IMG/VR virus record: IMGVR_UViG_3300047382_000771
Coordinates: 64,001-128,000 of that record
Reading direction: 5' to 3' (one strand)
Origin: a virus
Lineage: Duplodnaviria > Caudoviricetes
Length of the DNA stretch: 64,000 nucleotides
A model generated the notes under the pieces. That model was not told the DNA's origin. It saw only the letters and a program-made list of their open reading frames with translations, and made no database searches. A program made the translations under genes and the position numbers. Positions 38,812 through 58,092 of this stretch are shown piece by piece; within the stretch, counting starts at the first letter, position 1, and the number at the start of each line of letters is the position of its first letter.

Positions 38812-41168
38812 TCTTCGACTTCTTCGCTCTGCGAAGTTATATTCAAAACATACCCCGCTGAAGGTGCCGATTGATTCGTTAGAAAATCAACGCCACTAAT
38901 CGTAGGCTCTCCTATCATCATGGCGTTTATAAAAGTTGGTGTTGATGACCCAGTATAATTTATATTAAAAGACACACTAGGTATACTTGTGTGCTTATCC
39001 TTAAACGGAACATTAAAACTTGTTCCTACACCCTCTAGATCAAACTTAGTCTCCTGCCTGGGAACCAAGTATTCTATGCTATCATTTACTTGGTAGTATT
39101 TATTGGGTCCAGCAGCATCATGAGTCATTATCGTTATATACTGTGGCCTATTACCTTCTAGGTCTGTGGAAGCTGCCCCGACATGCAGACCATCAACATT
39201 TGAATCTTCGATTGTTGCCTCACTATAAAAGTTATTATCATCAGGTATTATATTAGGAATTTCTCCTGTATGAAAAGATACCTTAGTTAAATCTAAATTA
39301 TTTTTATTTTTCTTAAATTCCGAATCCCTTATTTCGTAAGTTATTGTGAAATTCGTTCCATTAGTTGTATAATTTAGGTTGTCTAGTTCTATTTTATTAA
39401 ATACATGCACCTTACTATGACCACCTACCCTCTCTTGATTTTCTCTTTTAATAAAATCTGATCTTATCAATATACTATCATTTCTTAAGTAATCACAACC
39501 AAGATCTCGATAAACATGAGACCCGCTTGAATTTACCCAGCACCAACCTGAGCCCACATCATTTGAGGTAAAATTAATTATCTCGTTATTGTTATTGATA
39601 TAGTCTCCAGATCTAAACCCACTAGGATGAAACTGATTAAACGACGATCTATTTTTAATTTCACTATCAAAGACTTCGTCGAAAATTCCAACATTACCCC
39701 TCCTTAGCCCTAGCCATCCTTTAGCTCCACTAAATTGATTAACCTGATTCCATTGAGATTTATTTAATAGAACCGCTGGCATTTCAGCAATTTGATTTAA
39801 ATAAGATGCTGACATTTCGTAACCACTACTAAACTTCTCCCCTTCTCTAAATTGAATATTTAAACCATTAGGGTTGTCTCTTTCCATTGAAAATGTTCCA
39901 TTAACGTAGCATTGGCCAGATAATATATCTTCGTATGTATGAAAACATATTCGTTTTTCATCTACATCGTAGTATGCGTATTCATAAATCCCACTTTCTC
40001 CACTATATAAAACTTCCCCACCTTTAAAATAATCACCAGCACCACTACCATAAATAAGGCCGTCTTTTTCTTGTAGATCTCCAGTGGTTGTTTTTGATAA
40101 AAAATCATAAGTATGATCATAATAGAAAGAACTATTATCATTTACTTCGGTAGAGATTGAATTATTAATACTAGCATGATCAATTAATATATTACCATTA
40201 TAACCAGACTTTGGCTTTGAGATTAAACCTGTACCATCTACTTTATATATAAGGTCTACAATTTGGTGGTCTTGCCAGTCGTAGTTTAATTTTATTAAGC
40301 TTCTAATTCCTGCTTCAACTTTTGTTACATCTACATCTTTAACTATTGGCTTGAAATTTACACCGCTAGCCTTATACGGATCTTGAGTCTGACTAACCAA
40401 AGGTAATGGCCCACCTTCGCCAAGATTATCAAACGGTACTGCCATTAAATAATTATTCCTATCTGGTAATAAGGGTATCGACCCACTCCTATTGTAATTC
40501 ACTGTTTTTATTTTAGCTCCAGATTTAAACTCAACGGTGTCCTCTAATTCACCGTATGCATTTGTCCCTGTAAATAAATACATATTAATACCTTGTAGGT
40601 CGCTTGTTCCAGTGTACTCTATCTCAAAATGCCCCCCAGTTTTATTGTAACTCGTAATTTCGCCAGTAGGCGGGGGGTTATACATATAAAGGTGTCCTGT
40701 TTCTTTATTCCCAAATTTATCGTTCAGTACAACTGAAACATTCAGGTATCTATTAAAATCACCAGACGCATCTATAGTGGTCTGATTCCCTGAGATTCCA
40801 GTTTCGCTATGTATTAACTTACCCCCCTCGAAGGATGGATTATTTAAACTAGAAGGATCTTGCCTGTAAACAAAAACATCAAAATTATCTATGTATTGAT
40901 TTTTCTTAACCAGTGATTCATTCTTGATAACCTTATTACCCTTAGGTTCAGTAACACTCCACCTCAAATTTATCTTACTAGATAATGTTTCCTGGGAAAA
41001 AAGTTTCTCTCCAGTTTCATCTTTAATTATTACTAATTCTGGTTGGTTAACACCATTATCCACAAATATTTTATTAATCCTGAAAGTTTTTCCGAACTTA
41101 TCTTTTGGATTTTTGAGAGGTATTTGGATGGATGCACTGGATCCAATATTTGTTTTTCTAATACTCAT
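38808..41168 (-). CDS. Tail-associated protein, probably the continuation of the J-like tip
   Basis: Coupled to J by TAATG; beta-rich FN3-like segments and a fibre-type C-terminus (FNVPFKDKHTSIPSVSF). Confidence 0.6.
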   Translation of the reverse strand: MSIRKTNIGSSASIQIPLKNPKDKFGKTFRINKIFVDNGVNQPELVIIKDETGEKLFSQETLSSKINLRWSVTEPKGNKVIKNESLVKKNQYIDNFDVFVYRQDPSSLNNPSFEGGKLIHSETGISGNQTTIDASGDFNRYLNVSVVLNDKFGNKETGHLYMYNPPPTGEITSYNKTGGHFEIEYTGTSDLQGINMYLFTGTNAYGELEDTVEFKSGAKIKTVNYNRSGSIPLLPDRNNYLMAVPFDNLGEGGPLPLVSQTQDPYKASGVNFKPIVKDVDVTKVEAGIRSLIKLNYDWQDHQIVDLIYKVDGTGLISKPKSGYNGNILIDHASINNSISTEVNDNSSFYYDHTYDFLSKTTTGDLQEKDGLIYGSGAGDYFKGGEVLYSGESGIYEYAYYDVDEKRICFHTYEDILSGQCYVNGTFSMERDNPNGLNIQFREGEKFSSGYEMSASYLNQIAEMPAVLLNKSQWNQVNQFSGAKGWLGLRRGNVGIFDEVFDSEIKNRSSFNQFHPSGFRSGDYINNNNEIINFTSNDVGSGWCWVNSSGSHVYRDLGCDYLRNDSILIRSDFIKRENQERVGGHSKVHVFNKIELDNLNYTTNGTNFTITYEIRDSEFKKNKNNLDLTKVSFHTGEIPNIIPDDNNFYSEATIEDSNVDGLHVGAASTDLEGNRPQYITIMTHDAAGPNKYYQVNDSIEYLVPRQETKFDLEGVGTSFNVPFKDKHTSIPSVSFNINYTGSSTPTFINAMMIGEPTISGVDFLTNQSAPSAGYVLNITSQSEEVED

Positions 41169-44100
41169 TAGGGTACCGCCTCAATTCTAACATAATAACT
41201 CTTACCTTCCTCTATGGATGTATCCCTAAAGTCATAAGAAATTTGTTTAGTTAAATCGTCTCTATTTATGTTTTTATTCCCAAGCTCAAGTGTTTTTATT
41301 AGCTGCTTTGAGTGGAAAACTTGAACACGATATAATCTTGCAGCAGAAACTTCGTTCCAGAATATCCTTAAGCCATATTTTAACCCAAGCTCTTCATCTT
41401 CATCTAGCATTTCGATGTATATATTTTCAGGAGGCGGAGTAAAGTTTGTATTCATAACAATTGGGGATCTTGGGACAGGCAGAGTTGCGTTATCTTCAAT
41501 TGTTCCAAATTTACCAGAGTTATATTCCATAGCTTCTATTTTATATATAGCATCCCCCTCTTCAATTATATTTAAAACTTTATACTGCTTTGTTGTTGCT
41601 AAATTTAATTCATCCTCTATAACAAAAGTAGTACCTTCTATATCATGCAACTTAAGTAAAGCATCGTCAGTTTTCCTCTCAAGTATATAGCTTTTTAATA
41701 TATTTTTGTCATGGGTTACCCAATCCCCATGGTCTTCAAAATCGCTAGATCCACTAACACAAATAAAATTATAACCAGAAGGCAAATCTGGATCCTCTAC
41801 TATAATCTCCATAGATTCACTCACTAAGGGTTTAGGATAACTAGGAGAATCCGTTTCCACCCCTTCTTGAGCTTCTAGACTAGCTATCCTATCTCTCCCA
41901 ATATCAGATTCAGTATTACCAAATTCATCTTCTAGGGGATCTCTAGCTATCGTTAATCCAACTTTTGGGTAACCTACCCCCCAATTATAAAAATCTATTT
42001 CATCATCAGTACAGCCTTGTGGGTTAACCCATACAAATTTTTCAGGAGGAGGAGTCTCTCTGTAATACCCGCCTATCCATGCAAGCTCATTATCATCTTT
42101 TGGCAACACATCCCCAACGAATTGTTGGTCTACTTCGTTAGCAATCGAAGCTACATCGCCACCTCGTAATCTAGCATCCTGCATTGCTGTCACAAATGTA
42201 AACTTGCCAGATATATGCTCGTAAGGATTATTGATAACTTGCACCCTAGTATCGTTATTAGTTATAGAGCCTATAGTGTATTCACCTATTTGCCCAATCC
42301 TAATACTATCTATTTCTTCATCCGTTATCGCATCCCCATAAAGTGATTTTTGATTTAAGGTCTCCAGAGTGTTGTAGCCCGATATGTTGTATAGTTTTAT
42401 TTTCTTGTGAGTCCTATTATCAAATGAGTCAACTATAGTCCTAACTGGAAAATCTATATCTAGGTATGCTACCTTACCATCACCACTTACATCTATATTT
42501 AAAACTTTCCCAGCAAATCTACCTACAGTTTTTTTATTGTCTAATATATCTATCACATCTCCAGGCCTAAGATAAGATCCTGGATGAGCAGTATTAAATG
42601 TGACAATCTCTGTCTCTAAGTTCTTCCCTTGTACTAAAAACTCAGCCGTTCTTTGAGCTTGTGATTTAGATGTAACACCTAATGCGTTTATAGACTCTTC
42701 ATATAAACCGTTCTCTACGATCTTTTCTCTGTTTTCTGCGAACGCAATTTTTGGTCTATACCTATTGTATTGATCTAGGTATTTAACTTTTACAGAATTA
42801 GTTCTACTACTCCTGGGTGTATTTGAATACTGAAAGCCCTCGCTGGACACCATATTATTAGTAAACAACATGATACTATTAGTAGGCACATCCTGATAAA
42901 AGTTTATTTTCCCTCCACCCCAATAAGTGTATGCCCTAAATATGTCAGCTATTTCATTTATTAATTTAAAAGCATTACTAGGCTGGGATAAAACAGCATT
43001 CATTTTATACCTATGCTCTATTACTGGGTAATATATTTCGGCAGCACAAGTACCTTCCATCACATTACCTATACCTCTATCAAGGACAACATAATACCTA
43101 CCTATAGTTTCATCTCCAGTGACAGAGACAATTTTCCTTAATGCTCTTTTTTTATAACCGTTTTCCTCCCAAAATAGAGCTATATTCTTTTGTATATGTT
43201 TAAATTCTTGACCAAATTGTTCTTTAGTTAAAAACTGACCCTCCATTAAAATTCTAGCACTACCAACTGTTTTAAAATTTCTCCTTGGATATGTTGATGA
43301 ATACCCAGTTGGAACAAGTTCGTCACAAAATTTTGCTACTTTGTAAAATGTCCACTTGTCTATAAACTCTTCTTCCATACCGAACTTACCCAATCCATAA
43401 ACATTATTAGATATTAAATCGTATAGACACCATGCTGGATTGTCAGTCCACACAAGTTCATCTGAAAATTGTCCATTCCACGCTTGCCCATAAGTTTTCA
43501 AAACTGGATCGTAATTATTTGGTACTTTTACTTTTTTAAGTTTTAAGTTGTAATTTCTCCTTAACTGCTGTGGGACTTCTTTTGCTGAAACCCTAGTTCC
43601 TATTACTACTGAATTTGGGTAATTAGTTTTTATAGTGGATATTTCAGTTATGTTAGCTAAAGCAACATCATCCTTGTACCTCGCTGCTGACTCACCCTCC
43701 CTTACTACATTTCGCTCTCTAGTTATTTTGAAAGCTTTTATAATTCTAGGTCTACCCAACGGATTAGGAGGTAGATAAATTTTAATATCCTTCATGTACC
43801 CACCTGTGCAGGTTCCGAAGAAAGAAACATCTGTCTCGTATAAAGTTTCTCCTTCATTTCCATAGTGTATTCTAACCTGAACTCTGTTCGGCCAAGTTTC
43901 TCCAGAATTTTCAATTTTAGTTCCTATCTTAAATTCAGAATTTTTTTCAAGAATAATACCAAAAATTAAACCAACAACGCCTCCCCATATAACACTGGTC
44001 AGAAATGCACCCAAGTCAAATGGTTCATCACTTTCAGCCATTAAGTCAGCTGCATAACCTGCCCCAGTAATAGCACCTATAACAGCAAATAAAGTAGCAC

Positions 44101-46573
44101 CAGGAACATATGTAACCTCTACTTCGTCCCCTGGGTATATAAAAAATAATTGATTTATTTGAAATGTAACCAATGCTTCATCTACTAAGGGATTCGTTAT
44201 TATATGTTTTACTGGATATTCTTCTTCTGGTCTTACGTCTCCAATATCTCCTAATGAGTCTAATGAAATAAAAACTGGGTCATCCGATACAGCGGATGTG
44301 TCTTCGTTGTAAAAAACTACCCCAGGATTTTCTATAGTAATTTCTTTCCATAAGTTACTATTCGTTTCGGGATCTGGATCTATGGCTGTAAAAATGGTGG
44401 GAAATTCTTCGGCAACAGTTTCTAAAAACCCTCTTCCGTTTAATTCTATTTTCTCGAAATAAACAACCCCTTGCTGAGCTTGATCACTTAAAGATACTAT
44501 AGTTGAATTTTCATCACTTAAGTCTCCCTCTGGGATAGCTGTTATTGTTTTATAAACAGACGTATTATTAAAGTAAACAACATCATTCACTGCAAAAGGT
44601 TTAGCTGGCCTAAATTGCTTAAACCTTGTTGCTGCTTCTGGGCCAGCCCTAAAATAACCAGAACCTACTAGATCTAAATCCTGATTATTAGGTATACCAT
44701 CACCATCATCGTCATCCATAGGATATTGGCCCATATATTCAGGCTCTTCAAAAACCACGGTATTCGCATCGTAAGCCATATTGTATGTAAAAACTTGAAT
44801 ACCATCCCCAGGATTGTCTGGATCTTCTTTAAATATTCCTCTAGCCTCAAATAACCTTGTTCCCTTTTTAACTATTGGGAGCGGGTCAAATTGTCCAACA
44901 ACATAATTAGACGCAGGACTATACTCAGTATCGGTGGCTCTTAATGTTTTATACCTAACCTCTGTAGTTCCATTAAAAAATGTAACTATTGTGCCCTTGG
45001 GATAAAAAGGTGTAGATTTATTAAAATCTTTAAAATTAGTACCCTGGAACTTAGCCGCATTAACTTCATCTAATATTCTAGGCCCAAAAAGTTTTGCGTT
45101 TATTGGTTTTGTTTCCCCTATAAACTGGTAAGGCTTTTCTAACAAAGATTGATCGTTTGCTCCAATCTCTCCTTTTGTATTCCTAGCTACATCAATATCA
45201 AACTGTAATAGATTATAACTTTCTTGTACAGTTGTTTCGTCTATATATTTCTCTTCTTTTACTGGTAGGTCATTAAGTAAAACAGCCTTAAGGTAACTAT
45301 CCGAACCATCTCCAGGATTACTGTCTTTCGCATCTGTAAAAATTAAATCATTACCATCGTCATCAGAGAATCCTTGAATTGGTCCTTCGCATATTAAATC
45401 TACTATTGTAGCTATCGCTGAAGACTCGAATTTATACCAACCTAAACCATTCCTTTTACTTCCATTCTTGTATCTTCTTCCAACACAAATAACATTTCCT
45501 AGGTTAGAGGATTGAACATTAGTTGGGTCATCTACAAGTTGAGCATTCCTGAAATTTATCGGATAAAATATTCTTTCTGAAGAATCGTTAATTCTTTTGG
45601 GTTCGCTCTGCAGCATAGTGAAAGGAGCTAAATGTAAATCAGCCTCTTTAACTGTAGCTATTCCTTCTTGTGGAGTTGGTCCCCAATCCCCATTGTAACT
45701 ACTATAATTTTGAAGGAAATATTCTGGCACCCCTTTGTTATAAATAGTTTTATAATACAATGTGCCCGCACTTAAAAAACCCTTACCAAGTTTTTGCTTT
45801 TCAATAGCTTCCTCCCCTGTGTATGATACATCTGCTCCGTACATTCCATCATTAGATCCAAAACCTGTAGCAGGGTCCCTAGATTTAAGAGCCTTAAATA
45901 CTATACTTTCTATACCCATTTCTGATGGCCCGTCAGCGATAGAGGAAAAAGCACTAGATAATAGCGGGCCAGGATCTTCTCCTAATTGCTCAATTAATAA
46001 CTGTCTGTATTTATTATATAAAGGTATAAGGTGGTATGCTCCATTTTCTAATTTATATATTTTACCTAAATCAGCATCATATTCATAATTATTAATTGAA
46101 TTTGATACAACCTTAGAGCCCACTTTCATTTTACCGTAACCAAGTGGTACATTACTACCTTGTTCTGTTACATTCTCCACACCCCTATAAATATAAGATT
46201 TGGTTTGAGCTTGTAAAACTCTAGTATCTCTCTCTTTCTTCCCTAGCATTTTATTCTGAATCCATCCGCTAAGGAAACTTGTACCAAAAGACATAGCCAT
46301 TCCCATAACCATTCCAGCACCTTGAGCTACAGGAGATATAATAATATCTTCTTTTGTATTTTTATCTATTTCTTCTTGGCGGAAATACTCATTAGAGTCT
46401 TTCTTCTTAAAAGAGTACCTAACTCCATCCATCTCTTTAGATTGCAGGTATTGTATAAAACCATCAGTATTTGCTTCGATAGCCGATATAGCTTCTAGGG
46501 GAGACCCCACATCTAGTTCCCACTTTTTCCCAAAGCGTTTGCCTAGTTTTCCATATAAGTATACCTTTTTCAT
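41168..46573 (-). CDS. Fused lambda gpI-gpJ-like tail tip / host-specificity protein with inserted C-type lectin, CBM-like and Ca-binding segments
   Basis: gpI: VYLYGKLGKRFG...EAISAI and QGSNVPLGYG. gpJ: VDLICEGPIQG, WTDNPAWCLYD, RYKMNAV and GVTSKSQAQR. Confidence 0.9.
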   Translation of the reverse strand: MKKVYLYGKLGKRFGKKWELDVGSPLEAISAIEANTDGFIQYLQSKEMDGVRYSFKKKDSNEYFRQEEIDKNTKEDIIISPVAQGAGMVMGMAMSFGTSFLSGWIQNKMLGKKERDTRVLQAQTKSYIYRGVENVTEQGSNVPLGYGKMKVGSKVVSNSINNYEYDADLGKIYKLENGAYHLIPLYNKYRQLLIEQLGEDPGPLLSSAFSSIADGPSEMGIESIVFKALKSRDPATGFGSNDGMYGADVSYTGEEAIEKQKLGKGFLSAGTLYYKTIYNKGVPEYFLQNYSSYNGDWGPTPQEGIATVKEADLHLAPFTMLQSEPKRINDSSERIFYPINFRNAQLVDDPTNVQSSNLGNVICVGRRYKNGSKRNGLGWYKFESSAIATIVDLICEGPIQGFSDDDGNDLIFTDAKDSNPGDGSDSYLKAVLLNDLPVKEEKYIDETTVQESYNLLQFDIDVARNTKGEIGANDQSLLEKPYQFIGETKPINAKLFGPRILDEVNAAKFQGTNFKDFNKSTPFYPKGTIVTFFNGTTEVRYKTLRATDTEYSPASNYVVGQFDPLPIVKKGTRLFEARGIFKEDPDNPGDGIQVFTYNMAYDANTVVFEEPEYMGQYPMDDDDGDGIPNNQDLDLVGSGYFRAGPEAATRFKQFRPAKPFAVNDVVYFNNTSVYKTITAIPEGDLSDENSTIVSLSDQAQQGVVYFEKIELNGRGFLETVAEEFPTIFTAIDPDPETNSNLWKEITIENPGVVFYNEDTSAVSDDPVFISLDSLGDIGDVRPEEEYPVKHIITNPLVDEALVTFQINQLFFIYPGDEVEVTYVPGATLFAVIGAITGAGYAADLMAESDEPFDLGAFLTSVIWGGVVGLIFGIILEKNSEFKIGTKIENSGETWPNRVQVRIHYGNEGETLYETDVSFFGTCTGGYMKDIKIYLPPNPLGRPRIIKAFKITRERNVVREGESAARYKDDVALANITEISTIKTNYPNSVVIGTRVSAKEVPQQLRRNYNLKLKKVKVPNNYDPVLKTYGQAWNGQFSDELVWTDNPAWCLYDLISNNVYGLGKFGMEEEFIDKWTFYKVAKFCDELVPTGYSSTYPRRNFKTVGSARILMEGQFLTKEQFGQEFKHIQKNIALFWEENGYKKRALRKIVSVTGDETIGRYYVVLDRGIGNVMEGTCAAEIYYPVIEHRYKMNAVLSQPSNAFKLINEIADIFRAYTYWGGGKINFYQDVPTNSIMLFTNNMVSSEGFQYSNTPRSSRTNSVKVKYLDQYNRYRPKIAFAENREKIVENGLYEESINALGVTSKSQAQRTAEFLVQGKNLETEIVTFNTAHPGSYLRPGDVIDILDNKKTVGRFAGKVLNIDVSGDGKVAYLDIDFPVRTIVDSFDNRTHKKIKLYNISGYNTLETLNQKSLYGDAITDEEIDSIRIGQIGEYTIGSITNNDTRVQVINNPYEHISGKFTFVTAMQDARLRGGDVASIANEVDQQFVGDVLPKDDNELAWIGGYYRETPPPEKFVWVNPQGCTDDEIDFYNWGVGYPKVGLTIARDPLEDEFGNTESDIGRDRIASLEAQEGVETDSPSYPKPLVSESMEIIVEDPDLPSGYNFICVSGSSDFEDHGDWVTHDKNILKSYILERKTDDALLKLHDIEGTTFVIEDELNLATTKQYKVLNIIEEGDAIYKIEAMEYNSGKFGTIEDNATLPVPRSPIVMNTNFTPPPENIYIEMLDEDEELGLKYGLRIFWNEVSAARLYRVQVFHSKQLIKTLELGNKNINRDDLTKQISYDFRDTSIEEGKSYYVRIEAVP

Positions 46574-46599: not shown

Positions 46600-47328
46600 T
46601 TAAGAATTAGGTCTGTATACTCTAACTATTCTTTTTCTCCATTTATCGTCTAAAAAGTCTTCGCCAGATAAGTGGTGAGCTTTTTGATGATAAAATTCAT
46701 CTACTTCAGAGCAAACACCTACGTGCAATACATCTTCATTAGGGATATGAAATATCAACATGTCATGTTTTCTTATGTCTTCCTTATCTTTAACTTTAGT
46801 AAATCCCTCCTCAAATATTTTAAGCATATATTTGTTAGCTTTTTTACCATCTATAGGGGGAAAATAATTAAAGGATTTATAATCTAATTTAAACCAAGGG
46901 CATCTTTCGGAATAATAATCTCTAGGAATATTAACGCACTCACAAAAGCCCCTAACATAAGGTCTACCAGTTAGACTTGGCGGCTCAAATGAATCAGGTA
47001 TATATAAAAATATTTTTTTAGTTACCAAGCTATATATTAAGAAAGGTATACCCAGTTCTTCTGAATTATTTATATCAACCTGAGATGGATTCTCTGAAGA
47101 TGTAGGATGGGAGTGATATATACCTAAAAGTTTTTTTTGCCCTAAAATTTTTAAAGGAGAAATCTCAAACATTCTCTGTTTATCAAAGCTTTGATTTTTT
47201 TCCCTAGTAACTTTAACTATCAAATTAGAATCTAAAGATATGGTACCGCAAACTTCTTCACTTGGATTTGATTCTGCGTGCTCTATAATTTCTTTATAGT
47301 AATCTTTATTTTGTTTATTCAAAGTCAT
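46600..47328 (-). CDS. Tail tip assembly protein K-like (JAB/MPN plus NlpC/P60)
   Basis: EEVCG, YHSHP...PSQVD, GRPYVRGFCEC and LHVGV. Confidence 0.9.
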   Translation of the reverse strand: MTLNKQNKDYYKEIIEHAESNPSEEVCGTISLDSNLIVKVTREKNQSFDKQRMFEISPLKILGQKKLLGIYHSHPTSSENPSQVDINNSEELGIPFLIYSLVTKKIFLYIPDSFEPPSLTGRPYVRGFCECVNIPRDYYSERCPWFKLDYKSFNYFPPIDGKKANKYMLKIFEEGFTKVKDKEDIRKHDMLIFHIPNEDVLHVGVCSEVDEFYHQKAHHLSGEDFLDDKWRKRIVRVYRPNS

Positions 47329-48340
47329 AAGGTTCTACTCCTGGAAAACCTCCGAAGGGCAAACCTTCATTGAATTCCGTATATAAATCGTCATCTCCTT
47401 GGTTTGATTGAAATCTTTTACACCCCCCAGCTTCTTTTGCGTCATCTGAATACCTTAACCTGCAGCCACAGATACTTTTGTCACACTGATCTTGAATCCA
47501 GTTTTTTCTATCAAACAAGGGGCTTGATATAACTTCCTTACCAATGCACACATATATAGATATAGGCTGGTTTTCTGATGTGCCTGTTTTTGGTGTTATG
47601 GTTACAACATCTCCCTTATTGTAAGTCCCATATGCAGTCCATTCTGGGTAAGATCCATTTTCATCAGGCTCAGCAAAACCATCAGGAAAATCATCTTTAT
47701 TCAAATGCACAAAAGCCCCCACATCTTCGCCTTCGTATCCAAGTTCCACGAATCTTTGGTTTTTTATGTCAGCTATAGGTTTACCCACATAACCACATCC
47801 GACTGTAGATCTATATTTCCACTCACAGTAATTAGAATATATTGTTCTGGATGGTATAGTTGAATTTTCAAGCTCCAACGGAGATACTAACTCAAACTCC
47901 ACTAAATCATCAGTTTCTCTTAATTTTTGGTTAACAAAATATATCTCTCTAGCAAAAGCCTCCTCTGGGTCTGGTTCAGCATAAGGATTAATATTGTTTG
48001 GGAAGTTCGAATGATCTAAATATTTTAATAAAGTTTTTATCCTAGTAACTCTGTAATTTGTAAAGTCATTAAATATTGGCAGCCTTACCGATATGTTACC
48101 TCTATAATTAGACAAAGTCATGGTCGGCCTAGGTAGTCTTCCATCGCCTTGAAATTCAAACCCCTGAACTTCTATAGGGTAATATAAATATTCCATACCG
48201 TCAAAAACAATTTTACCACGAAACTCATTCTCTCCAGCATGAAAAGTAAACACACCCCTTTCCTTTATATCCAGCTGATATAATACTATAGGCATAGTAG
48301 GGTCTGCCTGAAATAAATCTTTTACTTTTTCTTCTTTCAT
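47315..48340 (-). CDS. Minor tail protein L-like
   Basis: YPIEVQGFE..GDGRLPRPTMTLSN, KYLD..NFP, CEWKYR...CGY, CDKSICGCRLR and LPFGGFPG. Confidence 0.92.
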   Translation of the reverse strand: MKEEKVKDLFQADPTMPIVLYQLDIKERGVFTFHAGENEFRGKIVFDGMEYLYYPIEVQGFEFQGDGRLPRPTMTLSNYRGNISVRLPIFNDFTNYRVTRIKTLLKYLDHSNFPNNINPYAEPDPEEAFAREIYFVNQKLRETDDLVEFELVSPLELENSTIPSRTIYSNYCEWKYRSTVGCGYVGKPIADIKNQRFVELGYEGEDVGAFVHLNKDDFPDGFAEPDENGSYPEWTAYGTYNKGDVVTITPKTGTSENQPISIYVCIGKEVISSPLFDRKNWIQDQCDKSICGCRLRYSDDAKEAGGCKRFQSNQGDDDLYTEFNEGLPFGGFPGVEPYDFE

Positions 48341-48341
48341 T

Positions 48342-49838
48342 TTAGTATGAACTCGTACTTATGTTACCGCCTGTATTTGTCTGGTTATTAATTTCGCCTA
48401 TTTGAGTTCCCTCTGCAACATCTTCTTCGCTTGCTGAAACTATATTGTTATATAATATGATTTTAGGGTCATAGTTTCCAAGGAAAAATGTTTTATTTTC
48501 AATTAGCCCCTCAGGCATAAAATACATCTTGCCGTTAAACTCAAACTTCCTAAACGCTCCGCTTCCTGATTTTTCCGCGCTAGCTTTAGATAAATACAAC
48601 GGATAGTAACCTTGAACATTTTTAGGCGACTCTATATACGAGCTACCAATATCTACAGCTAGCCTTTTATCACTTTTTACATTTTCCGAAACGATACCCC
48701 TTAAAGGTAAATCATATACTCTACTAAATTCAATTGATTTATTAAGTGCGGTAACAAACGAATATTCACGACCAAGATATCTTTTATTGGCTCCTAATTT
48801 AGTTGCTCCCCCTAAACCTATATGCCATCTCATAGATTGGCCAAGCCTACCCTGCTGCTGTTGATATTCTGACATTATTTTTATGTCATCTGATGCTCCA
48901 TGCCTAGACAATTGATAGGATATAACTTTTTTTAGTTTAATAGGGTCATCCGTACTTAGAGATTGCCCTATGTTTTGTACAGAATCTTTCCACAGAAAAT
49001 CTCTAAGCATGCCATCCCAATGCCTGTTTACGAAATTCTGAATTTCCTTAACATAAACCTCGTCCCTTATTTCTTTAGTATCGAATGTAGAGTCGGCATT
49101 CGAGTCGTCATTTATTCGAAAAATAGAGTTCCATTCTTTAATTAAATTCCTTTCACTATATTCGCCTGTATAGATAGGGTATATTCTCCTCGTCTCTGGT
49201 ATACCTGATATATCTTGGGACAATTCTGTCGTTATATCAGGCTTGATTTGCAAAGAAAATATAGATCCTTTTTCCGATGAAGAATATATATCAAATACAC
49301 AAATGCCTTCTGCATTTTCTTGAACATCTATAAAAGGAATATTAGATTCTCCCGCTTCTAATTCTAACAACTCCATAATGGAAGCTCCACTCCAGCCGCC
49401 AGAAAACATATCACTCAAAACTATAGTGTTCCCTTCAACTATGCCAGACATACCTATATCCTGAGGATCAAAATCTCCAGTTCCAGTAATCAGATAACCT
49501 CCCGACCAATAAGACCCTCCAGGCAACCTTAATTCATTTTCGATTTGTTTAGAACTCGATAGTGAGCTAGACCTCTGTCCAGGTACCCAAGAAAACTGAT
49601 CAGGGTATCCTAGTAAATTGTTTTTGTCTAGATTTAAATCTCTTTCTTCGTTATTAAAAAAAGATATTCTTTTTACTGTGTGAATATAATCAGACTCAGT
49701 TAAATAAGTTATAAAACCAGATCCATTTATTGTTCTCAAAACTAGAGTTGAGACCGAGTCTGGATCCATCGCTATACCTAAACTGACACCATCATTGTAG
49801 GTATTGAAATCCCCGCTATTAAAATTAATTTTTTTCAT
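48342..49838 (-). CDS. Hypothetical tail-module protein
   Basis: Lies inside the tail operon; start placed at MKKINF (TAATG overlap). Confidence 0.6.
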   Translation of the reverse strand: MKKINFNSGDFNTYNDGVSLGIAMDPDSVSTLVLRTINGSGFITYLTESDYIHTVKRISFFNNEERDLNLDKNNLLGYPDQFSWVPGQRSSSLSSSKQIENELRLPGGSYWSGGYLITGTGDFDPQDIGMSGIVEGNTIVLSDMFSGGWSGASIMELLELEAGESNIPFIDVQENAEGICVFDIYSSSEKGSIFSLQIKPDITTELSQDISGIPETRRIYPIYTGEYSERNLIKEWNSIFRINDDSNADSTFDTKEIRDEVYVKEIQNFVNRHWDGMLRDFLWKDSVQNIGQSLSTDDPIKLKKVISYQLSRHGASDDIKIMSEYQQQQGRLGQSMRWHIGLGGATKLGANKRYLGREYSFVTALNKSIEFSRVYDLPLRGIVSENVKSDKRLAVDIGSSYIESPKNVQGYYPLYLSKASAEKSGSGAFRKFEFNGKMYFMPEGLIENKTFFLGNYDPKIILYNNIVSASEEDVAEGTQIGEINNQTNTGGNISTSSY

Positions 49839-50680
49839 TATGGCCAATTAGGTTCATTGATCGTATCAAGTTTATACATTTGATTAGCTAAAGGTCCAAA
49901 GTAAGCTGTCCTAGGGATTGCTGTTAAACTATTAACAAGATTAGTTCCATTATAATTCCAATTAAGCACTATACCTAAATGAGTAGGAGGTTGTTGTGTA
50001 AATCTAAGCTGAAACGGGTGAAGGCCTTTCTTTAAAAAAACACTTCCTGTAGCACTCCAAGCAAATCCATGATTACTGTAATCATCATCAATAATTAATG
50101 TTCTATTAGTTGGAGCTAGACCACCTTGAAATATATAAAATATCGCCCTATCATCCGATATTGTAGCAAATTTATAGGTGCCATCTACTGGTGCATAAAT
50201 TTGACCATCCCAAACAGCTGCGAAATACTGGGTTAACGAGGTCATTCCAGGAAACCCTTTAGTGTAAGACTGGTTAGGCACATTTATTTGGTGACTACAC
50301 ATATCTGTTTTAAATTTACCGTTATAGTTAGTATCTGTCTTTAGTCCATTAGCTCCAATACCTCCAATTTGGTAAAGCCTTAATGCCATAGGCAATCCAG
50401 GCGACCCACAAGGACCCCCGAACGCAGAGAATACAGCTGATGGGTCAGGAGCTGGAGCGGGCTGAGGCACTTCTTCTACATCTACAACATTGATATTGAA
50501 ATTTTTCTCCAAGCTCAAACCCCTCTCGTCCGTGCAAGACACTCTAATTGAAAAAGAGGGATTATTAAAAGCTTCGTAATCTAAGCTTTGAACAAGTTTA
50601 ACCTTTCCATCTTCGGTGACAGAAACATATTGGTTACCTTCACTCCCTGCCCCAGATACTAATTTAAATTTTCTAGCCAT
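49838..50680 (-). CDS. C-terminal part of a cadherin domain plus a PA14 domain
   Basis: LVSGAG..N...LDYE...FSIRV..TDERGLSLEKNFNINVVDVEE; PA14: WDGQIYAP.DGTYKF...SDD...LKKGLHPFQL. Confidence 0.85.
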   Translation of the reverse strand: MARKFKLVSGAGSEGNQYVSVTEDGKVKLVQSLDYEAFNNPSFSIRVSCTDERGLSLEKNFNINVVDVEEVPQPAPAPDPSAVFSAFGGPCGSPGLPMALRLYQIGGIGANGLKTDTNYNGKFKTDMCSHQINVPNQSYTKGFPGMTSLTQYFAAVWDGQIYAPVDGTYKFATISDDRAIFYIFQGGLAPTNRTLIIDDDYSNHGFAWSATGSVFLKKGLHPFQLRFTQQPPTHLGIVLNWNYNGTNLVNSLTAIPRTAYFGPLANQMYKLDTINEPNWP

Positions 50681-50681
50681 T

Positions 50682-52004
50682 TTATTCTACCACTCCTAGT
50701 TGACCTATTAATGTTCCAGCTGGAAGGTTTTCTTTGATATCTGAATTAGATAATGTTATATCCGTAAAAGGCACATACCTTGCGGCATCCAACTCCACAA
50801 ACCCAGGCGAAAAACAAAATCCTTCATTCACAAAATCTCCTTTCTCGGATAAAAATATATTATTATCCCTCAAAGTATTATCTCTTTTTTCTGTATTAAA
50901 AAATATAGACATATTACTGACAAGTGTCGAAGGACTATCGGTTGTAACATCTATATGCATGCCTGTGTATTCAATACCATCGAAATATATTCTCTCGTTT
51001 TGCCTAAAATATGTTCCAGTTACTTTTGCATTATTAAAGTCTATAATTTCAATAGCGTAACTATCCAACATTTCATCTAAGCTCGAAGCGTCAAATATAG
51101 CTTTATTAAATGTCGCCATAGCTGCCTTAAATGACACTTGGTCTTTACAATACTTTTGGGTTATCTGTTGAGACAAACCCTGTAATGCAAAAAACTTATC
51201 ATAATCACTATCAGTAATATCAGAAAATATACCAGATGTTAATAAACAATTCTCGAATTCTAAATCCCCCAAAGGATTTTGATCTTCGCAAGAATAATAA
51301 CCTTCATAGTTCTGGTAATTAAGTAGTGGCTCTCTATCAAGCTTGTCGCAAACTAATTCCCCACTAACAATGAAATTTGTATCACAATTATTTGTTTCAC
51401 AATTAACAATAGGAAACCCTGGGAAAATACTAAACTTTGCATGCCATGCGTCTCCAGTCCTATTCTCCCAAGACCCTTCTCTCCCATCCTCTATTTCATT
51501 TCTTGACGGATGAAAAAATGTTGGTATCCTTAATCTTGTATAAGGAGCTATAGTGGCTGGCAAATAGTCCTCATCCACATTTCCTGTATTATATTCCTCT
51601 AACCCCTTATATGTTTGCTCGAAAATAGTAAACCTAACTGGGTCAGAATTAGTAAAGCCAGTTATAGTAATTGGCATATCGCAAACATTTACTATCTCCA
51701 AAGACTTACCATCAGCCGTTAAACCGACTGGTTCATTACAGGGGTATGTTATTTCTGAAGTTTCACAGTCGTCTAAATAAATAACCTGAGGCTGACCAGG
51801 AGCAACACCAGAAACACCATCGGTTAAAATAAGCTTATTATTATATGTTGCTTGCTTTAGGATCCAATCTTCATATGTAGGTGAAGATGGGTCAGTATCT
51901 TGTACATAATACAACCCTGTTTCCTGAAGTAGTCCACCGCAATTCGCATACTCAGTAATACCAGTGTAAGCGAAGTCGACGTTTTTGTCATTCAAGAAAC
52001 TCAT
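50682..52004 (-). CDS. Tail-module protein ending in the first two strands of a cadherin domain
   Basis: Ig-like middle (LEIVNVCDMPITIT) and C-terminus FTDITLSNSDIKENLPAGTLIGQL. Confidence 0.7.
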   Translation of the reverse strand: MSFLNDKNVDFAYTGITEYANCGGLLQETGLYYVQDTDPSSPTYEDWILKQATYNNKLILTDGVSGVAPGQPQVIYLDDCETSEITYPCNEPVGLTADGKSLEIVNVCDMPITITGFTNSDPVRFTIFEQTYKGLEEYNTGNVDEDYLPATIAPYTRLRIPTFFHPSRNEIEDGREGSWENRTGDAWHAKFSIFPGFPIVNCETNNCDTNFIVSGELVCDKLDREPLLNYQNYEGYYSCEDQNPLGDLEFENCLLTSGIFSDITDSDYDKFFALQGLSQQITQKYCKDQVSFKAAMATFNKAIFDASSLDEMLDSYAIEIIDFNNAKVTGTYFRQNERIYFDGIEYTGMHIDVTTDSPSTLVSNMSIFFNTEKRDNTLRDNNIFLSEKGDFVNEGFCFSPGFVELDAARYVPFTDITLSNSDIKENLPAGTLIGQLGVVE

Positions 52005-54796
52005 TGCTTCTTCATTGTTATATTTTTAAAATTAGAAGACACCCACAGGGTTGAGCTTGCTGGGTCACTAGCATCAGGCTCAACAGTATAGTCGGCTAGG
52101 TGAGCCCAAGTCTGCTGTGGTATGAGCCATCTTCCATGGGCTCCACTAAACGCCCCCACGATATCATTCATCTTGCCAGGGACATCCGTAAGTGTGGGGA
52201 AGTCAGCATTAGCTATATAAAATTGAAAACACGAATATGTGGTATTCGGGCTAGTGATTTGGTTTTTTCCTAAAAGGTCTGCCGCTTCAGGACTTAAGTC
52301 ATACTTAATCAACTTAGGATTTTCCCCAACTTTATCATTTATTTTTAAATGAGGTGGCGGAGGCTCCCCTGACTGATTTAAGGATAATAATTCTGGCCCC
52401 GATACTATGTACAGCTCTCCAGTTTGTGCATAATAAGTGAACTGGGCTTGATGATAATATGTGGTACTAGGTGCGGATGCTAATGTCGATGGGGTTGATG
52501 CATACGCATTTATATCTGCGAGGGATTCAGCACTTAAAGTTGCTATCACCGCAGTTCCATCTTCGTTCGTTACGTCGGGTGAAGCTGCAACCGAAGACCA
52601 AAAGCCACTAAGATTAAACTCTCCTGATGGAATGTTATGCTCAAGAATAACTTCCCCAACCATCACATCTTCAGTTGAACCTATAGTGTTTCCATCTTCA
52701 TCAACACCTGAGTTTGGGGTAGGATATCGAGGTAGTGTTAATTTAATTTCGCTCCCTGCTGGCAAATAGCCAGCTTCAGGCTCAATAATCCATGTTCCAT
52801 ATATAGGTAACTCCAGTGGCTCTTCCTCTTCTGGCTCATCTTCAAATTCTCCTGGCGTATAAGGCAAATACATTCCTATCCCATCTACAGACCTACCTGT
52901 GCTAGTAAATGGCATTTCACATGTTAAGTCGAAATGCATGTTAGCATAAGCCTGCATTTGATTCATTGTTTTATCTTTTCCATTAAAAACCATCTGAATT
53001 TTTTCGACGATAGCTTGATACCCTGGCTTGGTTGGCATGCTTTGATTCATTCTTACTCCAAAAAACAAATCTATTTCTTGCCCTCTCATTAATAAAGGTA
53101 AATGAGAATAATCACCCATATATCCATTTTCTTTAGATACGTTACCTATATTATAATCTATTATTTCTAACCCAGTTGTTTGTGATCTAAAAACCCTAAT
53201 TGGCATACCCCTTGATGCTACCCCTTGGTTTTTCACGCCCTTACTTTTTAGCCAATTATTAGCCCAACCTCCACCTACATTGTAAAGTACCCCACGTCTA
53301 TACACTTCATACTGTGTATTAAATGAATGCCAAAGTATATTGTAATTACTATTAATATCTTCCAGGTAATCTCTATTTAAAGGATCATTATAAAATTGGC
53401 CACCATTACCAGCTTCTAGATTTAAATTCAACCCACCTATTCTATCTGAAGGATCATCAAATGGAGTGGCTTCAAAAACCATTTGGTGATCGTCGGTAGA
53501 CTTTAAAAAAGTACCATCTTCTATACCCGCAGCCATATAACCATAACTAGTATTACCATTTCCTGGTTTCAAGAACTGCATGTTATGTAAATCATTACCC
53601 TTAAGTATCCCTTGTTTTAAAGTTTCAGTCCTCCATCTTGTAGCCCCCACATCTGGATCATTCCTACTTTCTTCTGGGGTTGGGTCTTCATCTAATTCGA
53701 AATTTACTATCGTGTTTAGTAGGTTAACTTCATGAGGTCCACAATTATGAAGTGTTATCGAATATAAATTCTCAAAACCAGTGTCATAACATAACCTATC
53801 AATCATGTTAACAACGCCAAGAATTCTCCTAAATTCCTTATCTGGGTTTTTTCCATCTGTCAGCTCTATATATCCTACGGGTAATTCTGGCCTTGCTTCG
53901 TAATCAAAAGCATATTTTTTAGCATCAGGAGAAATGCCTTTGCTTTTTGGGTCACCTACTCCGATAAAAAAAGAAGAAGTTTTTACTGGGTATTTATACC
54001 AGTCTTGTTTGTCTGCCCCAGAATATCTTGTTGGCAATTTTAAATGGGTACCTTCTATAGGTTCCTGATTTGATATAACAAAATCTCTTCTCAAATTTAT
54101 ATCTAAAGGTCTTCGGTATGAGTATATCCTATCATCTCTAGTTAACCCAAGTATGCCGTCAGCATTTCTACCAAAATCACTATAACCATCACCTATGTAA
54201 AATAAAAATCTTTTCTTTACCTGCCTGGCTCTTGGAGAGAAGAATAATTCATAGAAAGCTTTTCTTGTTGCATTAATATAATCCTTCCCGTCGCCTGGTG
54301 TTATTCCAGATTCAAGGTTCTTATACAAAGCATGCCTATCCATGTTTTGAGGGTAATCTAAAATAGAAGATATAACTTCGCAATCTTCCTTGCTGGATAT
54401 TTTTATAACACCAATATTTACATGTTGACCTTCTATCCTAACACTGAACCTTTTAAGCTCTCGAGGAGACATCGCATTCAAACCATCTGCATCAAGAAGA
54501 CCTCCTCCTGATGCAGCTCCCCATGGCGGTATATTTTCGTTGTAATCTATAGTCGGACAATCTATTTTATCTCCATAACCAAATGATTCTGTGCCAGGCA
54601 TAACGCTACAGTCGTGCAGTGTTGCAACTTTTTTTATAACATCTGTTATAATCTCAAGTCTAGTGAAAATCTTTACACCACCGCCTTCTACAGGAATGCG
54701 TATTTGGCTCGAAGACGAAGGTGATGAATCGACCAAAAAAATCAAATCTATCTGATTATCATGTACTTTGTACAACCTATCGTATTGCTTTTCCAT
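52001..54796 (-). CDS. Tail-module protein with an N-terminal vWA domain
   Basis: DLIFLVDSSPS (MIDAS DxSxS), FLFYIGDG and FFIGVG, followed by an Ig-like segment. Confidence 0.75.
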   Translation of the reverse strand: MEKQYDRLYKVHDNQIDLIFLVDSSPSSSSQIRIPVEGGGVKIFTRLEIITDVIKKVATLHDCSVMPGTESFGYGDKIDCPTIDYNENIPPWGAASGGGLLDADGLNAMSPRELKRFSVRIEGQHVNIGVIKISSKEDCEVISSILDYPQNMDRHALYKNLESGITPGDGKDYINATRKAFYELFFSPRARQVKKRFLFYIGDGYSDFGRNADGILGLTRDDRIYSYRRPLDINLRRDFVISNQEPIEGTHLKLPTRYSGADKQDWYKYPVKTSSFFIGVGDPKSKGISPDAKKYAFDYEARPELPVGYIELTDGKNPDKEFRRILGVVNMIDRLCYDTGFENLYSITLHNCGPHEVNLLNTIVNFELDEDPTPEESRNDPDVGATRWRTETLKQGILKGNDLHNMQFLKPGNGNTSYGYMAAGIEDGTFLKSTDDHQMVFEATPFDDPSDRIGGLNLNLEAGNGGQFYNDPLNRDYLEDINSNYNILWHSFNTQYEVYRRGVLYNVGGGWANNWLKSKGVKNQGVASRGMPIRVFRSQTTGLEIIDYNIGNVSKENGYMGDYSHLPLLMRGQEIDLFFGVRMNQSMPTKPGYQAIVEKIQMVFNGKDKTMNQMQAYANMHFDLTCEMPFTSTGRSVDGIGMYLPYTPGEFEDEPEEEEPLELPIYGTWIIEPEAGYLPAGSEIKLTLPRYPTPNSGVDEDGNTIGSTEDVMVGEVILEHNIPSGEFNLSGFWSSVAASPDVTNEDGTAVIATLSAESLADINAYASTPSTLASAPSTTYYHQAQFTYYAQTGELYIVSGPELLSLNQSGEPPPPHLKINDKVGENPKLIKYDLSPEAADLLGKNQITSPNTTYSCFQFYIANADFPTLTDVPGKMNDIVGAFSGAHGRWLIPQQTWAHLADYTVEPDASDPASSTLWVSSNFKNITMKKQ

Positions 54797-57700
54797 TATT
54801 CAGTATATTCTATTAATATAGATCCTATGTGCTGCCAAGAATACTGAGCCCATTTTATCCTAGTGTCATATATCCCAAAAGATTTTAGATAAGTTCCAGC
54901 TTTAGGTAAAAACCCTAATTTAGATCCATCATTAAGAGATGGCCTAAGTTTCCATAGATCTGAAATAGTCATCTCTAACTGATCGTAATAACCTAAATCC
55001 CTCATATTTCTTTTTATAACATTATTCCAAAGTTTATTTCTGTAATCATCCCTCTCTACCCAAAAGTTATTATATATTATAAATGGCCCGATTTCATCCA
55101 TTATTAAATCACCCTCAAAGTTTTCCTTACTATACATCCTAACTCTTACACCTTTAGGGGCACCTATTGCATCAAGCAGCCCTTTACTAACGGATACTGG
55201 GTCTTCTGGTTCCCTTCTGTCTATCAGAACATTTTTAAGAACAAATTCTGCGGCTGGGAATCTACCTACTGGTAAAGAGTTTGTGAATTTTGACGAGTCT
55301 GACTTAAAGGGTTGTGCGAGGCAGTGATAATTATTTAATAAACCTCCGTATTGTTCCCTGGTAATAACTTGCCCTGCAGCATAACTATGCTTAAAGTCCC
55401 ACTGCTGGTCATGTATACCCACCCCAGAGAAAGTAACTTTTAATGGCTCAGACAATGTCACAGGTTCCCAGGGAATAAGTTTACTTTTATATAAATAATC
55501 TGGGGTTGTGAACGCAGCTTCCACCACGGAGGACAAAACACACATAGTGTTCAATGTAATGGGTTCGTAAAGCTCTGCCCCGAAACAACCAGATTGAATC
55601 CTTTGCCCTCCAAAACCAAACACTTCCTTAAGGTTTTCATTTATACCACTAACAGACTCAATGAAAGTGCAAGATATGGTGTTATTATTTTTGTATAAAA
55701 CAGTATGCTCCCAGCTAGGACAATAAAAAGTCGATGTATTCGGTGATGCTGGAGTCGTGTATGGGTTTAAATCTTTCGAGAAAGGCCTAGGCAGCTGAAA
55801 CCTGAACTTTTTGTAGCCTAAATGAGACTCCAGAAACTGAAGTATTTCCTTAGCTTCTCTGTCAGACCTTTGAGAAAACTCAATATTCACACTTACTAGA
55901 TTTTGATTTATACCTACTTTTGTGTATCTTTTATAAACCTGAGTAAACGCAGTCTCTTTATGTGTTGGAGTATTTTCAATACTAAAAGATATAGAAGGCA
56001 AAAAATCTAAAGACCTAACTTGCAAATAAGGATAAGACGCAAATTCGTTAGCATCATCTATATATATATTTCTCCTCCCTTTTACAGCTGGAACAATAAA
56101 ACTAAAGTTATCCTTGACTTGAAAGTTTTCTAATGGAGTTATCTTTAATTTATTAGACTTTGGGGTAATTTTAGAATCCAAAGTAATCCTCCTGTAATCC
56201 CTTAAGAATAATTCCCTAGCCCTAAAAGTCCCATCTTCGGATGTGGAGGCGGGTATTTCATCTATGTTTTCTGGAAAGAAAGTCTTACTAGTTAAACAGT
56301 CTTCAGGGCACCTTCCAAGTTTTATTATATTCCAGGGTATTTCATCAACAGTTAGATCTTCGTAGTCTACCACTAATTCTTCAGCAGGAAAAGAATCCGC
56401 AAAAATTCTATTTCTATCTGAGTCTGTTATCATTCCTTGTTCGGTTTTTTTGTTTGCTCCAGGATCCTCTACTATAGGCCACTCTATTAATTCAAAGGAT
56501 ACATTTTCAGATTCTAGATCAAATTCCCCCTCAAACAGATATTCTGTAGCACTTATTCTTTTTGTAATTTTTACTACTCCAACATTAAATATAGAATTCT
56601 CATTTGGTTCTGGGATGTCAATATTTAAACATTGACCTATATCTAGAACATAATCTTCCTTAAACTCAATCTTACCTGCTTCGAAATCTTTGCCTGGATC
56701 TTCTGGATATCTAGAAAGGGTTTTGATCATTTTCCTTATCTGAACATTCTCGGTTGTCTCCCTATCCCTGCCTTTATATTCTCCACCAGGCTCTTCCTCT
56801 ATTTCTGCGGATATTTCGAACATCCTCAAACTCAACTGTTTGCCTTTCTCAAATTGTATTGGTTCATCTATCGCAACGGGAACTAATGCATCAATTCTTT
56901 TATTAAATCCAAAATGACTGTCAGAACTATACAGTGTGCTAGATGTGTTACATATAAATGTAGCACTTACATTATTATCGTTTCTGTAATTTTTCTCTTG
57001 ACCAAAACTTAAGCAGGTGAAATCTAAATCACTTTTATATGGGTAACCAAAATGAAATTTAAATTTTTGCACATCTGAAGATAGTAGTCTCTCTCCTTTA
57101 TAGTCTAAGGAAAAGGCAGAATCATAAGGAAAATGTTTTTCCTGTAAAAAATGCATTATAGCCTTTGCTTCTCTATCTGTTCTGTTTTCGAACTTTAGCG
57201 AGCACTGCATCGGCATAGAATTTATACTTTTATTACCAACGTATTCGTATCCATCACCAAGCTTAAGAGCTTCGTTTATAGTGCCAAAAGACGCACTCGA
57301 TCCGTAGCTTGGTCTCCAGAAAAAATCTTGAGACCATAATTCTTCAACATTTAACTCTGGAAAAGAATTGTTTGGGTTTAGTTGGAAATTTGAAACATGA
57401 TCTTTCTTGCAATAAAAAAACGGACTTAGATTGGATACGCTTGGGTTCCTAAAATAAAAACCACCAGTAACCAACCCGCCAATAATTGCATACATCCTTG
57501 CATACCTTGCGTTCGCTGGTATAGTTCTTTGGTGAATGTCATGCTGCATATGGAAGTATTGAGTCAAATCAAACTCACTAGACGCCATAAATCTAAAATG
57601 GTCTCTGTAATTTATAGGTTGAATATATTCTGAATTTTGATCGTAATATTTTATTCCAATACCAACCCCAATCGATGTCTCAGGGTCTATGTCGTATTGA

Positions 57701-58092
57701 CCATCATGACCATGTGTATATGAGATGTGCTCTTTTTCCGAAATTAAAGTATTAAATATATCAGTAGTAGCAGTATCTTCAGAATTTTTTCTCACCATAC
57801 ATTTAACTGTATAGCTGTACTTAGGATTAATTGCGAAGTCTACCCCCATTTGTTTCTGAAGGCCTTCTTCTTTATTATCTATATTGATACTAGCCTCACC
57901 CTTATAGTCTAATCCAAGTATGTAATCGTTTTCTGCATCTATTATATTAACAATTGGTTGGGTCTCATCCGCTAAACCTATACCATCTAATGCTGGGTTT
58001 TCAGGAAACGCAAGATTACCTATGCTTACTATCTCATGAGCAAGGTATTCTCTTCCATTGGGATCCCATGGATTATTTACTGATATATCCAT
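54796..58092 (-). CDS. Distal tail protein with two lambda gpM-like domains
   Basis: FFWRPS...LGDGYE...SIN...FENRTDREAKAIMHFL and FLPS...GIN...FSQRSDREAKEILQFLESHLGYKKF. Confidence 0.8.
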   Translation of the reverse strand: MDISVNNPWDPNGREYLAHEIVSIGNLAFPENPALDGIGLADETQPIVNIIDAENDYILGLDYKGEASINIDNKEEGLQKQMGVDFAINPKYSYTVKCMVRKNSEDTATTDIFNTLISEKEHISYTHGHDGQYDIDPETSIGVGIGIKYYDQNSEYIQPINYRDHFRFMASSEFDLTQYFHMQHDIHQRTIPANARYARMYAIIGGLVTGGFYFRNPSVSNLSPFFYCKKDHVSNFQLNPNNSFPELNVEELWSQDFFWRPSYGSSASFGTINEALKLGDGYEYVGNKSINSMPMQCSLKFENRTDREAKAIMHFLQEKHFPYDSAFSLDYKGERLLSSDVQKFKFHFGYPYKSDLDFTCLSFGQEKNYRNDNNVSATFICNTSSTLYSSDSHFGFNKRIDALVPVAIDEPIQFEKGKQLSLRMFEISAEIEEEPGGEYKGRDRETTENVQIRKMIKTLSRYPEDPGKDFEAGKIEFKEDYVLDIGQCLNIDIPEPNENSIFNVGVVKITKRISATEYLFEGEFDLESENVSFELIEWPIVEDPGANKKTEQGMITDSDRNRIFADSFPAEELVVDYEDLTVDEIPWNIIKLGRCPEDCLTSKTFFPENIDEIPASTSEDGTFRARELFLRDYRRITLDSKITPKSNKLKITPLENFQVKDNFSFIVPAVKGRRNIYIDDANEFASYPYLQVRSLDFLPSISFSIENTPTHKETAFTQVYKRYTKVGINQNLVSVNIEFSQRSDREAKEILQFLESHLGYKKFRFQLPRPFSKDLNPYTTPASPNTSTFYCPSWEHTVLYKNNNTISCTFIESVSGINENLKEVFGFGGQRIQSGCFGAELYEPITLNTMCVLSSVVEAAFTTPDYLYKSKLIPWEPVTLSEPLKVTFSGVGIHDQQWDFKHSYAAGQVITREQYGGLLNNYHCLAQPFKSDSSKFTNSLPVGRFPAAEFVLKNVLIDRREPEDPVSVSKGLLDAIGAPKGVRVRMYSKENFEGDLIMDEIGPFIIYNNFWVERDDYRNKLWNNVIKRNMRDLGYYDQLEMTISDLWKLRPSLNDGSKLGFLPKAGTYLKSFGIYDTRIKWAQYSWQHIGSILIEYTE

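Follow-up and report, generated by a model that had tools for sequence, protein, structure and literature searches.

A stretch of 64,000 nucleotides from an uncultured marine virus (Duplodnaviria; Caudoviricetes), corresponding to positions 64,001 to 128,000 of the IMG/VR record IMGVR_UViG_3300047382_000771 and referred to here as the window, was analysed at the boundary between two adjacent genes of a tail-tip operon, open reading frame (ORF) A and ORF B. A single cadherin-type domain is divided between these two genes, and its smaller and larger pieces are termed the plug and the socket, respectively. The features at the locus are as follows.

50682..52004, minus strand: ORF A, 440 amino acids (aa), a putative tail-tip accessory protein ending in an A-B hairpin.
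50685..50768, minus strand: the plug, strands A and B of a cadherin-type repeat, ORF A residues 413-440, assigned by the intact-repeat hidden Markov model (HMM) described below.
50678..50684, minus strand: the junction, with the ORF A stop codon TAA at 50684-50682, a spacer base A at 50681 and the ORF B start codon ATG at 50680-50678.
49838..50680, minus strand: ORF B, 280 aa, comprising a half-cadherin head, a Pro-rich linker and a PA14 domain.
50465..50680, minus strand: the socket, strands C-G of a cadherin-type repeat, ORF B residues 1-72, assigned by the same HMM.
50438..50473, minus strand: the Pro-rich linker EVPQPAPAPDPS between the head and PA14, read off the translation.
49946..50353, minus strand: the PA14 domain, ORF B residues 110-245 (Pfam PF07691, E 1.8e-8).

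ORF A ends with ENLPAGTLIGQLGVVE (..GQLGVVE) directly followed by TAA, and ORF B begins with MARKFKLVSG. The layout given in an initial annotation of the window, in which ORF A ends with strands A-B and ORF B starts one base later with strands C-G followed by PA14, was correct in every detail.

Near-full-length intact repeats (301 in total) were cut from giant cellular adhesins, and 244 of them were used for the construction of the intact-repeat HMM, with no phage sequence included. ORF A residues 413-439 matched positions 2-28 of this HMM (E 2.4e-8) and ORF B residues 4-72 matched positions 37-102 (E 2.5e-14), and these two pieces were the sole significant matches in all six frames of the 200,094-bp genome. 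When both frames were read through via a four-letter step (TAAA=K), the resulting 721-aa sequence (P0001) matched positions 2-102 by its residues 413-513 at E 8.7e-25, which is a match to a whole repeat. HMM positions 29-36, missing from both pieces, represent the DxD loop (TDPDxGD), as had been proposed in the initial annotation, and at this loop the phage pair is four residues shorter than the intact repeats. Of the calcium motifs, the pair retains the E of ENLP, LDYE and TDERG but has no DxD loop, and its end motif is degenerate (VDVEE).

ORF A residues 406-439 alone matched 5-15 repeats each in many giant cellular adhesins; P0014, a cellular protein with intact repeats, can be aligned over the junction (31-38% identity), and most of its repeats show a 3-residue gap precisely at the break; and the alignment with Cadherin-23 EC1 also crosses the junction. 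The read-through sequence spans positions 4-92 of the 93 of Pfam Cadherin (PF00028, E 1.3e-4), and ORF B alone gave a weak match to the second half of this profile only (positions 41-92). In all 12 loci with both pieces (the window and 11 others), the domain is interrupted by a stop codon and a new ATG, and at none of them is it contained in one polypeptide.

The structure of the read-through sequence was predicted by AlphaFold2 (AF2) with an alignment of natural rows only. Residues 411-510 were modelled as a seven-strand Greek-key beta-sandwich with predicted local distance difference test (pLDDT) values of 88-97, in which two strands come from ORF A (residues 422-424 and 432-437) and five from ORF B (residues 445-448, 460-462, 467-470, 483-491 and 497-507 in the fused numbering). 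Comparison of the model with cadherin EC domains gave Z scores of ~12 and root-mean-square deviations of 2.1-2.8 A over 93-99 residues. The pLDDT of the fused model was low from residue 518 on, and AF2 of the junction region without an alignment gave a pLDDT of 40.8 and was uninformative. What the AF2 model shows is the compatibility of the pair with the fold, not the association of two chains. In the cadherin topology, strand B lies in the middle of a sheet and strand A' pairs with strand G; because strand B is central in one sheet, the five-strand head alone would expose its core. An intermolecular disulfide was rejected as a link between the two proteins, since the 27-residue hairpin is without Cys. 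Charge pairing across the break, between the acidic end of ORF A and the basic start of ORF B, was seen in the PA14 clade only and was not used as evidence.

Two kinds of cargo were found behind the head. The PA14 match of ORF B reached 34.7 bits against a gathering cut-off of 24, and PA14 is likely to be a carbohydrate-binding distal module, by which ORF B may take part in receptor binding. PA14 follows the head in the window, L001, L002, L003/L020 and L012, and a Gly_rich_2 domain follows it in L007, L008 and L023 (Pfam, at or slightly under the cut-off) and, according to precomputed Pfam matches, in L005. The glycine-rich ORF B homologue in L005 (L005:7376-8104) has 242 aa with an odd basic tail, against 404-423 aa in L007, L008, L009 and L023, and is possibly truncated by a frameshift. 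The ORF B homologue in L012 (L012:6267-7180) is in two pieces, a head of 165 aa and a PA14 part of 137 aa, probably through a frameshift error and not through a second natural split, because this contig is a long-read assembly labelled 1.36x. A word-based search with the ORF B head alone returned three close relatives only.

The ORF A family comprises 89 representatives, and scans with the family alignment returned only three loci from IMG/VR and ten from metagenomes. ORF A relatives at 41-93% identity end straight after the same hairpin, and the gene after a hairpin-bearing ORF A begins with the C-G half in every fetched contig, by both sequence and HMM. In the 12 loci, the heads start at profile positions 33-37, located at ORF B residues 3-9, and the break is retained even where the ORF A body is only 33% identical. 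Among ~70 ORF A family members, no intact domain was found, and every match stops at profile position 26-31. For the window against L001, an IMG/VR contig, ORF A has a ratio of nonsynonymous to synonymous substitution rates (dN/dS) of 0.051 and ORF B one of 0.044, which falls to 0.018 when only its first 75 codons are taken.

Many distant ORF A relatives end ~40 residues earlier, just past a conserved GDF....FC motif, and lack the hairpin. Tail and head are present together in 12 loci and both are absent from three sequenced loci (L014, L015 and L027). The gene after the tail-less ORF A in L014 and L015 is a homologue of the 501-aa protein encoded after ORF B in the window (blastp, 27-29% identity, E 1e-45 to 1e-50); the next gene in L027 was likened to this protein solely by a similar N-terminus, and two further contigs without DNA have the same gene sizes as the tail-less loci. 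Because they are present together and absent together, the hairpin and the head gene were gained or lost as one cassette. In L012, the ORF A body is 33% identical to that of the window, the head is 61% identical and the tail is canonical; in the glycine-rich clade, the ORF A bodies are 47-48% identical, the heads 31-51% and the tail is divergent. These identities are no more than suggestive of tail, head and cargo travelling as a unit.

No match to the ORF A sequence was found in Pfam, and none to ORF A, ORF B and their neighbours in PHROGs; a PHROGs search with 33 ORF A family members gave a single weak match, and a search of the PDB with the ORF A family profile gave nothing credible. The ORF A body has pLDDT values >85 for most of residues 100-400 (AF2) and matches no family: a feature search of the Atlas for its fold was empty, and fold searches of the 721-residue model were dominated by the cadherin part. 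Several cysteines of the body are near-invariant (C80, C89, C108, C202, C207 and C219). In a sub-lineage represented by P0005 and P0007 (L003:6001-7944 and L020:3017-4960), ORF A has 639-647 aa and continues past the hairpin with a Pro-rich linker and then an extra domain of ~200 aa without a Pfam match; after this long ORF A of L003 and L020, an in-frame 9-nucleotide (nt) spacer and a normal ORF B follow. The extra domain may serve as a second binding module attached where the break lies.

It is considered likely that exchangeable receptor-binding modules are carried by a two-chain cadherin-type domain, which attaches them to a conserved tail-tip protein. The initial annotation had offered a natural split fold that links PA14 to a tail protein, and the observed split and its conservation, the purifying selection on both halves, their co-occurrence, the two cargo types and the fold compatibility fit it; the binding of ORF A to ORF B in trans, their position on the virion and the receptor-binding role are inferred. 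According to this proposal, ORF A and ORF B would be separately translated tail-tip proteins that jointly build one cadherin-type beta-sandwich, to which the last 28 residues of ORF A would give strands A-B and the first 72 residues of ORF B strands C-G. The break would sit in the B-C loop, which in tandem cadherin repeats carries a DxD calcium site, one that could be dispensable for a lone domain without a cadherin neighbour. With just its five strands, the hydrophobic core would be left uncovered, and the ORF B head is for this reason expected to fold only on the ORF A hairpin, by which ORF B would be fixed to the tail. The B-C loop would lie at the N-terminal pole beside the ORF A body, and the G strand would exit at the far pole into the Pro-rich linker and then PA14, so placed that this lectin-type domain would face outward from the tail and would bind a glycan on the host surface. 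Translation of ORF A and ORF B is probably coupled: with the tight junction (-4 to +9 nt), the nascent head could meet a hairpin from the same mRNA. Since PA14 and a glycine-rich domain alternate behind the same head, the split domain would be a standard mount for different receptor-binding modules.

The following points weigh against this proposal. The composite score for Pfam Cadherin is 22.8 bits, below the gathering score of 28.8. The AF2 model was computed for one fused chain that includes a single artificial residue, and its alignment contained 51 intact repeats, because of which a cadherin fold was near-guaranteed. In the 647-aa variants, the ~200-aa domain follows the hairpin in one chain, and the hairpin is not necessarily a free end. 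The ORF A tail of the glycine-rich clade was recognised only by a motif and by weak hhalign matches (P 0.002-0.009). The last two points also speak for an explanation that we regard as rather unlikely, namely that the split is real and the halves no longer pair, being relics of a gene fission that each bind something else or nothing, with ORF B kept on the tail through other contacts: the tail of the glycine-rich clade has diverged strongly from the consensus of the repeats, and in the 647-aa variants the hairpin lies buried with a domain on either side. Relics of this kind are, however, difficult to reconcile with the strong purifying selection on both halves, with halves that always co-occur and are absent together, with the fixed position of the cut, with the exposed core that a five-strand fragment without strand B would have, and with the tracking of head type by tail type across distant ORF A bodies.

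A joining of the two genes by a +1 frameshift, a stop read-through or a slippage, giving one 721-aa chain with an ordinary cadherin domain, was considered with respect to the sequence of the junction. The relevant features are as follows, with the spacing counted from the stop codon of ORF A to the ATG of ORF B.

50693..50697, minus strand: AGGAG, a Shine-Dalgarno-like word that lies 12 nt before the ORF B ATG, still within the last part of ORF A.
Spacing of +1: the window, L001, L002, L005, L013, L018 and L023.
Spacing of 0: L012.
Spacing of -4, with an ATGA overlap: L007 and L009.
Spacing of +5: L008.
Spacing of +9: L003 (L004, L020 and L021 share this sequence type).

Phage structural proteins often gain Ig-like (immunoglobulin-like) domains via programmed frameshifts. 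In the window, the two frames differ by +1 with a single base between TAA and ATG, the AGGAG noticed in the initial annotation does lie upstream of the junction (50697-50693), and in L003 and L012 the two genes are in frame, all of which would suit such a recoding. Among the loci, however, the frame relation is 0, +1 or +2 (spacings of -4, 0, +1, +5 and +9 nt); the spacer base varies (TAAA, TAAC and TAAT), no slippery sequence or heptamer is shared, the spacing is not conserved and the four-A run of the window is missing in L001. An ATG is present in the homologous column in 12 of 12 loci, which would be needless for a fused product. Upstream of it, the codons in the ORF B frame of the window read TAG AAT AAA ATG, and because of this in-frame TAG three codons upstream, which had been pointed out before, the ATG at 50680-50678 is the first possible start of ORF B. 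Shine-Dalgarno-like words of 4-6 bases were found 4-12 nt upstream of the ORF B ATG in 10 of the 12 loci. With a variable frame relation, no common slippery site and a conserved ATG, ORF A and ORF B are taken as two separately started genes, and the +1 recoding raised in the initial annotation is very unlikely.

A sequencing or assembly error or a recent pseudogene, which the one-base offset would suggest as the result of a single indel and which had also been raised, is refuted and keeps next to no probability: contigs from two other studies' seawater metagenomes bridge 50678-50690 with zero differences, a contig from a third study likewise shows no difference at the junction and reaches just ~20 bases into ORF B, L001 (7% diverged) has 152 substitutions and 0 indels over 2164 positions and the same break with C instead of A as the spacer, the break persists in ten more distant loci, with ORF A bodies as little as 33% identical, and dN/dS is ~0.05.

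TasA fibres use donor-strand exchange (PMC9674648). In these fibres as in chaperone-usher pili (Fim, Pap and Caf1), an incomplete Ig-like beta-sandwich is finished by strands of another polypeptide, as proposed for ORF A and ORF B, and completion in trans gives a very stable non-covalent link between subunits in a surface appendage. In those systems, however, it is the C-terminal G strand that is lacking, and the next related subunit provides it through an N-terminal extension, so that polymers form; in the pair described here, the G strand is present, and the N-terminal strands A-B are missing from ORF B and would be supplied by the C-terminus of an unrelated protein, and the predicted product is a one-to-one heterodimer joint. 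In addition, pili need a chaperone and an usher, whereas the neighbouring genes in the window encode tail proteins, and the split domain of the window, unlike theirs, has clear intact homologues.

The C-terminal tails of the PilC/PilY1 adhesins insert into the minor pilin complex by beta-strand augmentation (PMC13711793). A short C-terminal peptide docking into the beta-sheet of a partner, with the attachment of an adhesin to a fibre tip, is common to that system and to our proposal; there, however, the adhesin bears the tail and one strand is added to a fold that is already complete, whereas here the carrier bears it and two strands are integral to a seven-strand domain. Sheath protomers of contractile tails and injection systems are linked by a strand exchange called the "handshake" (PMC13266070). 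This is likewise a phage-tail-type machine in which subunits are locked by terminal strands in trans, but it is a homotypic mesh of one protein with no domain cut between genes.

Phage receptor-binding proteins have conserved N-terminal anchor domains and variable C-terminal heads. ORF B resembles them in its conserved N-terminal part, its exchangeable distal domain and its location beside the gene of the carrier, and differs in that its anchor is five-sevenths of a domain with the rest on the carrier. SpyTag/SpyCatcher and its kin are an engineered split of an Ig-like adhesin domain with the CnaB fold into a peptide and a remainder that are joined by an isopeptide bond. The division into a short peptide and a larger remainder is alike, but the split described here is natural and cadherin-type, with no sign of a covalent bond. 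The likening of the locus to a pilus or a tag/catcher pair in the initial annotation holds as an analogy of principle only. The papers searched on strand complementation, donor strands, split domains or gene fission in phage tails did not describe any domain divided between two tail genes. What differs from the known systems is the supply of two N-terminal strands by the C-terminus of an unrelated protein, the existence of plain intact homologues and the location in a siphovirus tail tip.

The genome of the virus is 200,094 bp with a G+C content of 36%, and the phage was present in metagenomes, from seawater and viral samples, of 15 studies; protein and distant DNA searches against the INPHARED phages gave no match. 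The operon is of the lambda type and lies on the minus strand in the order gpM-like, 931-aa protein, ORF A, ORF B, 501-aa protein, gpL-like, gpK-like and gpJ-like. The Pfam domains of a siphovirus tail-tip module were found in order on this strand (Phage_min_tail, Phage_tail_L, Prok-JAB and Phage-tail_3). The genes around ORF A and ORF B are as follows.

52001..58092, minus strand: upstream tail genes, encoding the 931-aa protein and a 1098-aa protein with a gpM-like domain (Pfam Phage_min_tail).
48342..49847, minus strand: the gene of the 501-aa protein.
47315-48340, minus strand: the gpL-like gene (Pfam Phage_tail_L).
46600-47328, minus strand: the gpK-like JAB gene (Pfam Prok-JAB).
41168-46573, minus strand: the gpJ-like gene (Pfam Phage-tail_3).

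The order of the genes for the 931-aa and 1098-aa proteins recurs in L002, L005, L008 and L009, and the 931-aa protein (52001-54796) is kept in synteny across all related loci; its N-terminal DLIFLVDSS.. is reminiscent of a von Willebrand A domain at its first strand and metal site, with no Pfam match. The gpJ-like protein has 1801 aa, of which ~1200 residues precede its Phage-tail_3 domain, and since no separate gene lies between the gpJ-like and gpK-like genes, a gpI-like part may be fused to it.

The anchors of receptor-binding proteins have mostly been treated as complete domains, and their mounting and swapping are central to host range. If the proposal is true, dividing one domain over carrier and cargo would amount to a new, simple mounting rule, in which folding is the attachment and the joint is very tight without a covalent bond, and matched pairs could move between phages as one cassette. 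A half domain at the end of one gene and the other half at the start of the next would then be an annotation signature for carrier-fibre pairs in uncultured phages, and the locus might give protein engineers a small natural peptide-partner pair on a cadherin fold. We lean slightly towards the broader view that tailed phages, and perhaps tail-like machines generally, use gene-split Ig-type domains as self-assembling plug-and-socket joints, in which the 28-residue hairpin and the 72-residue head would form a non-covalent tag/catcher pair and plug, socket and cargo would be inherited or swapped together.

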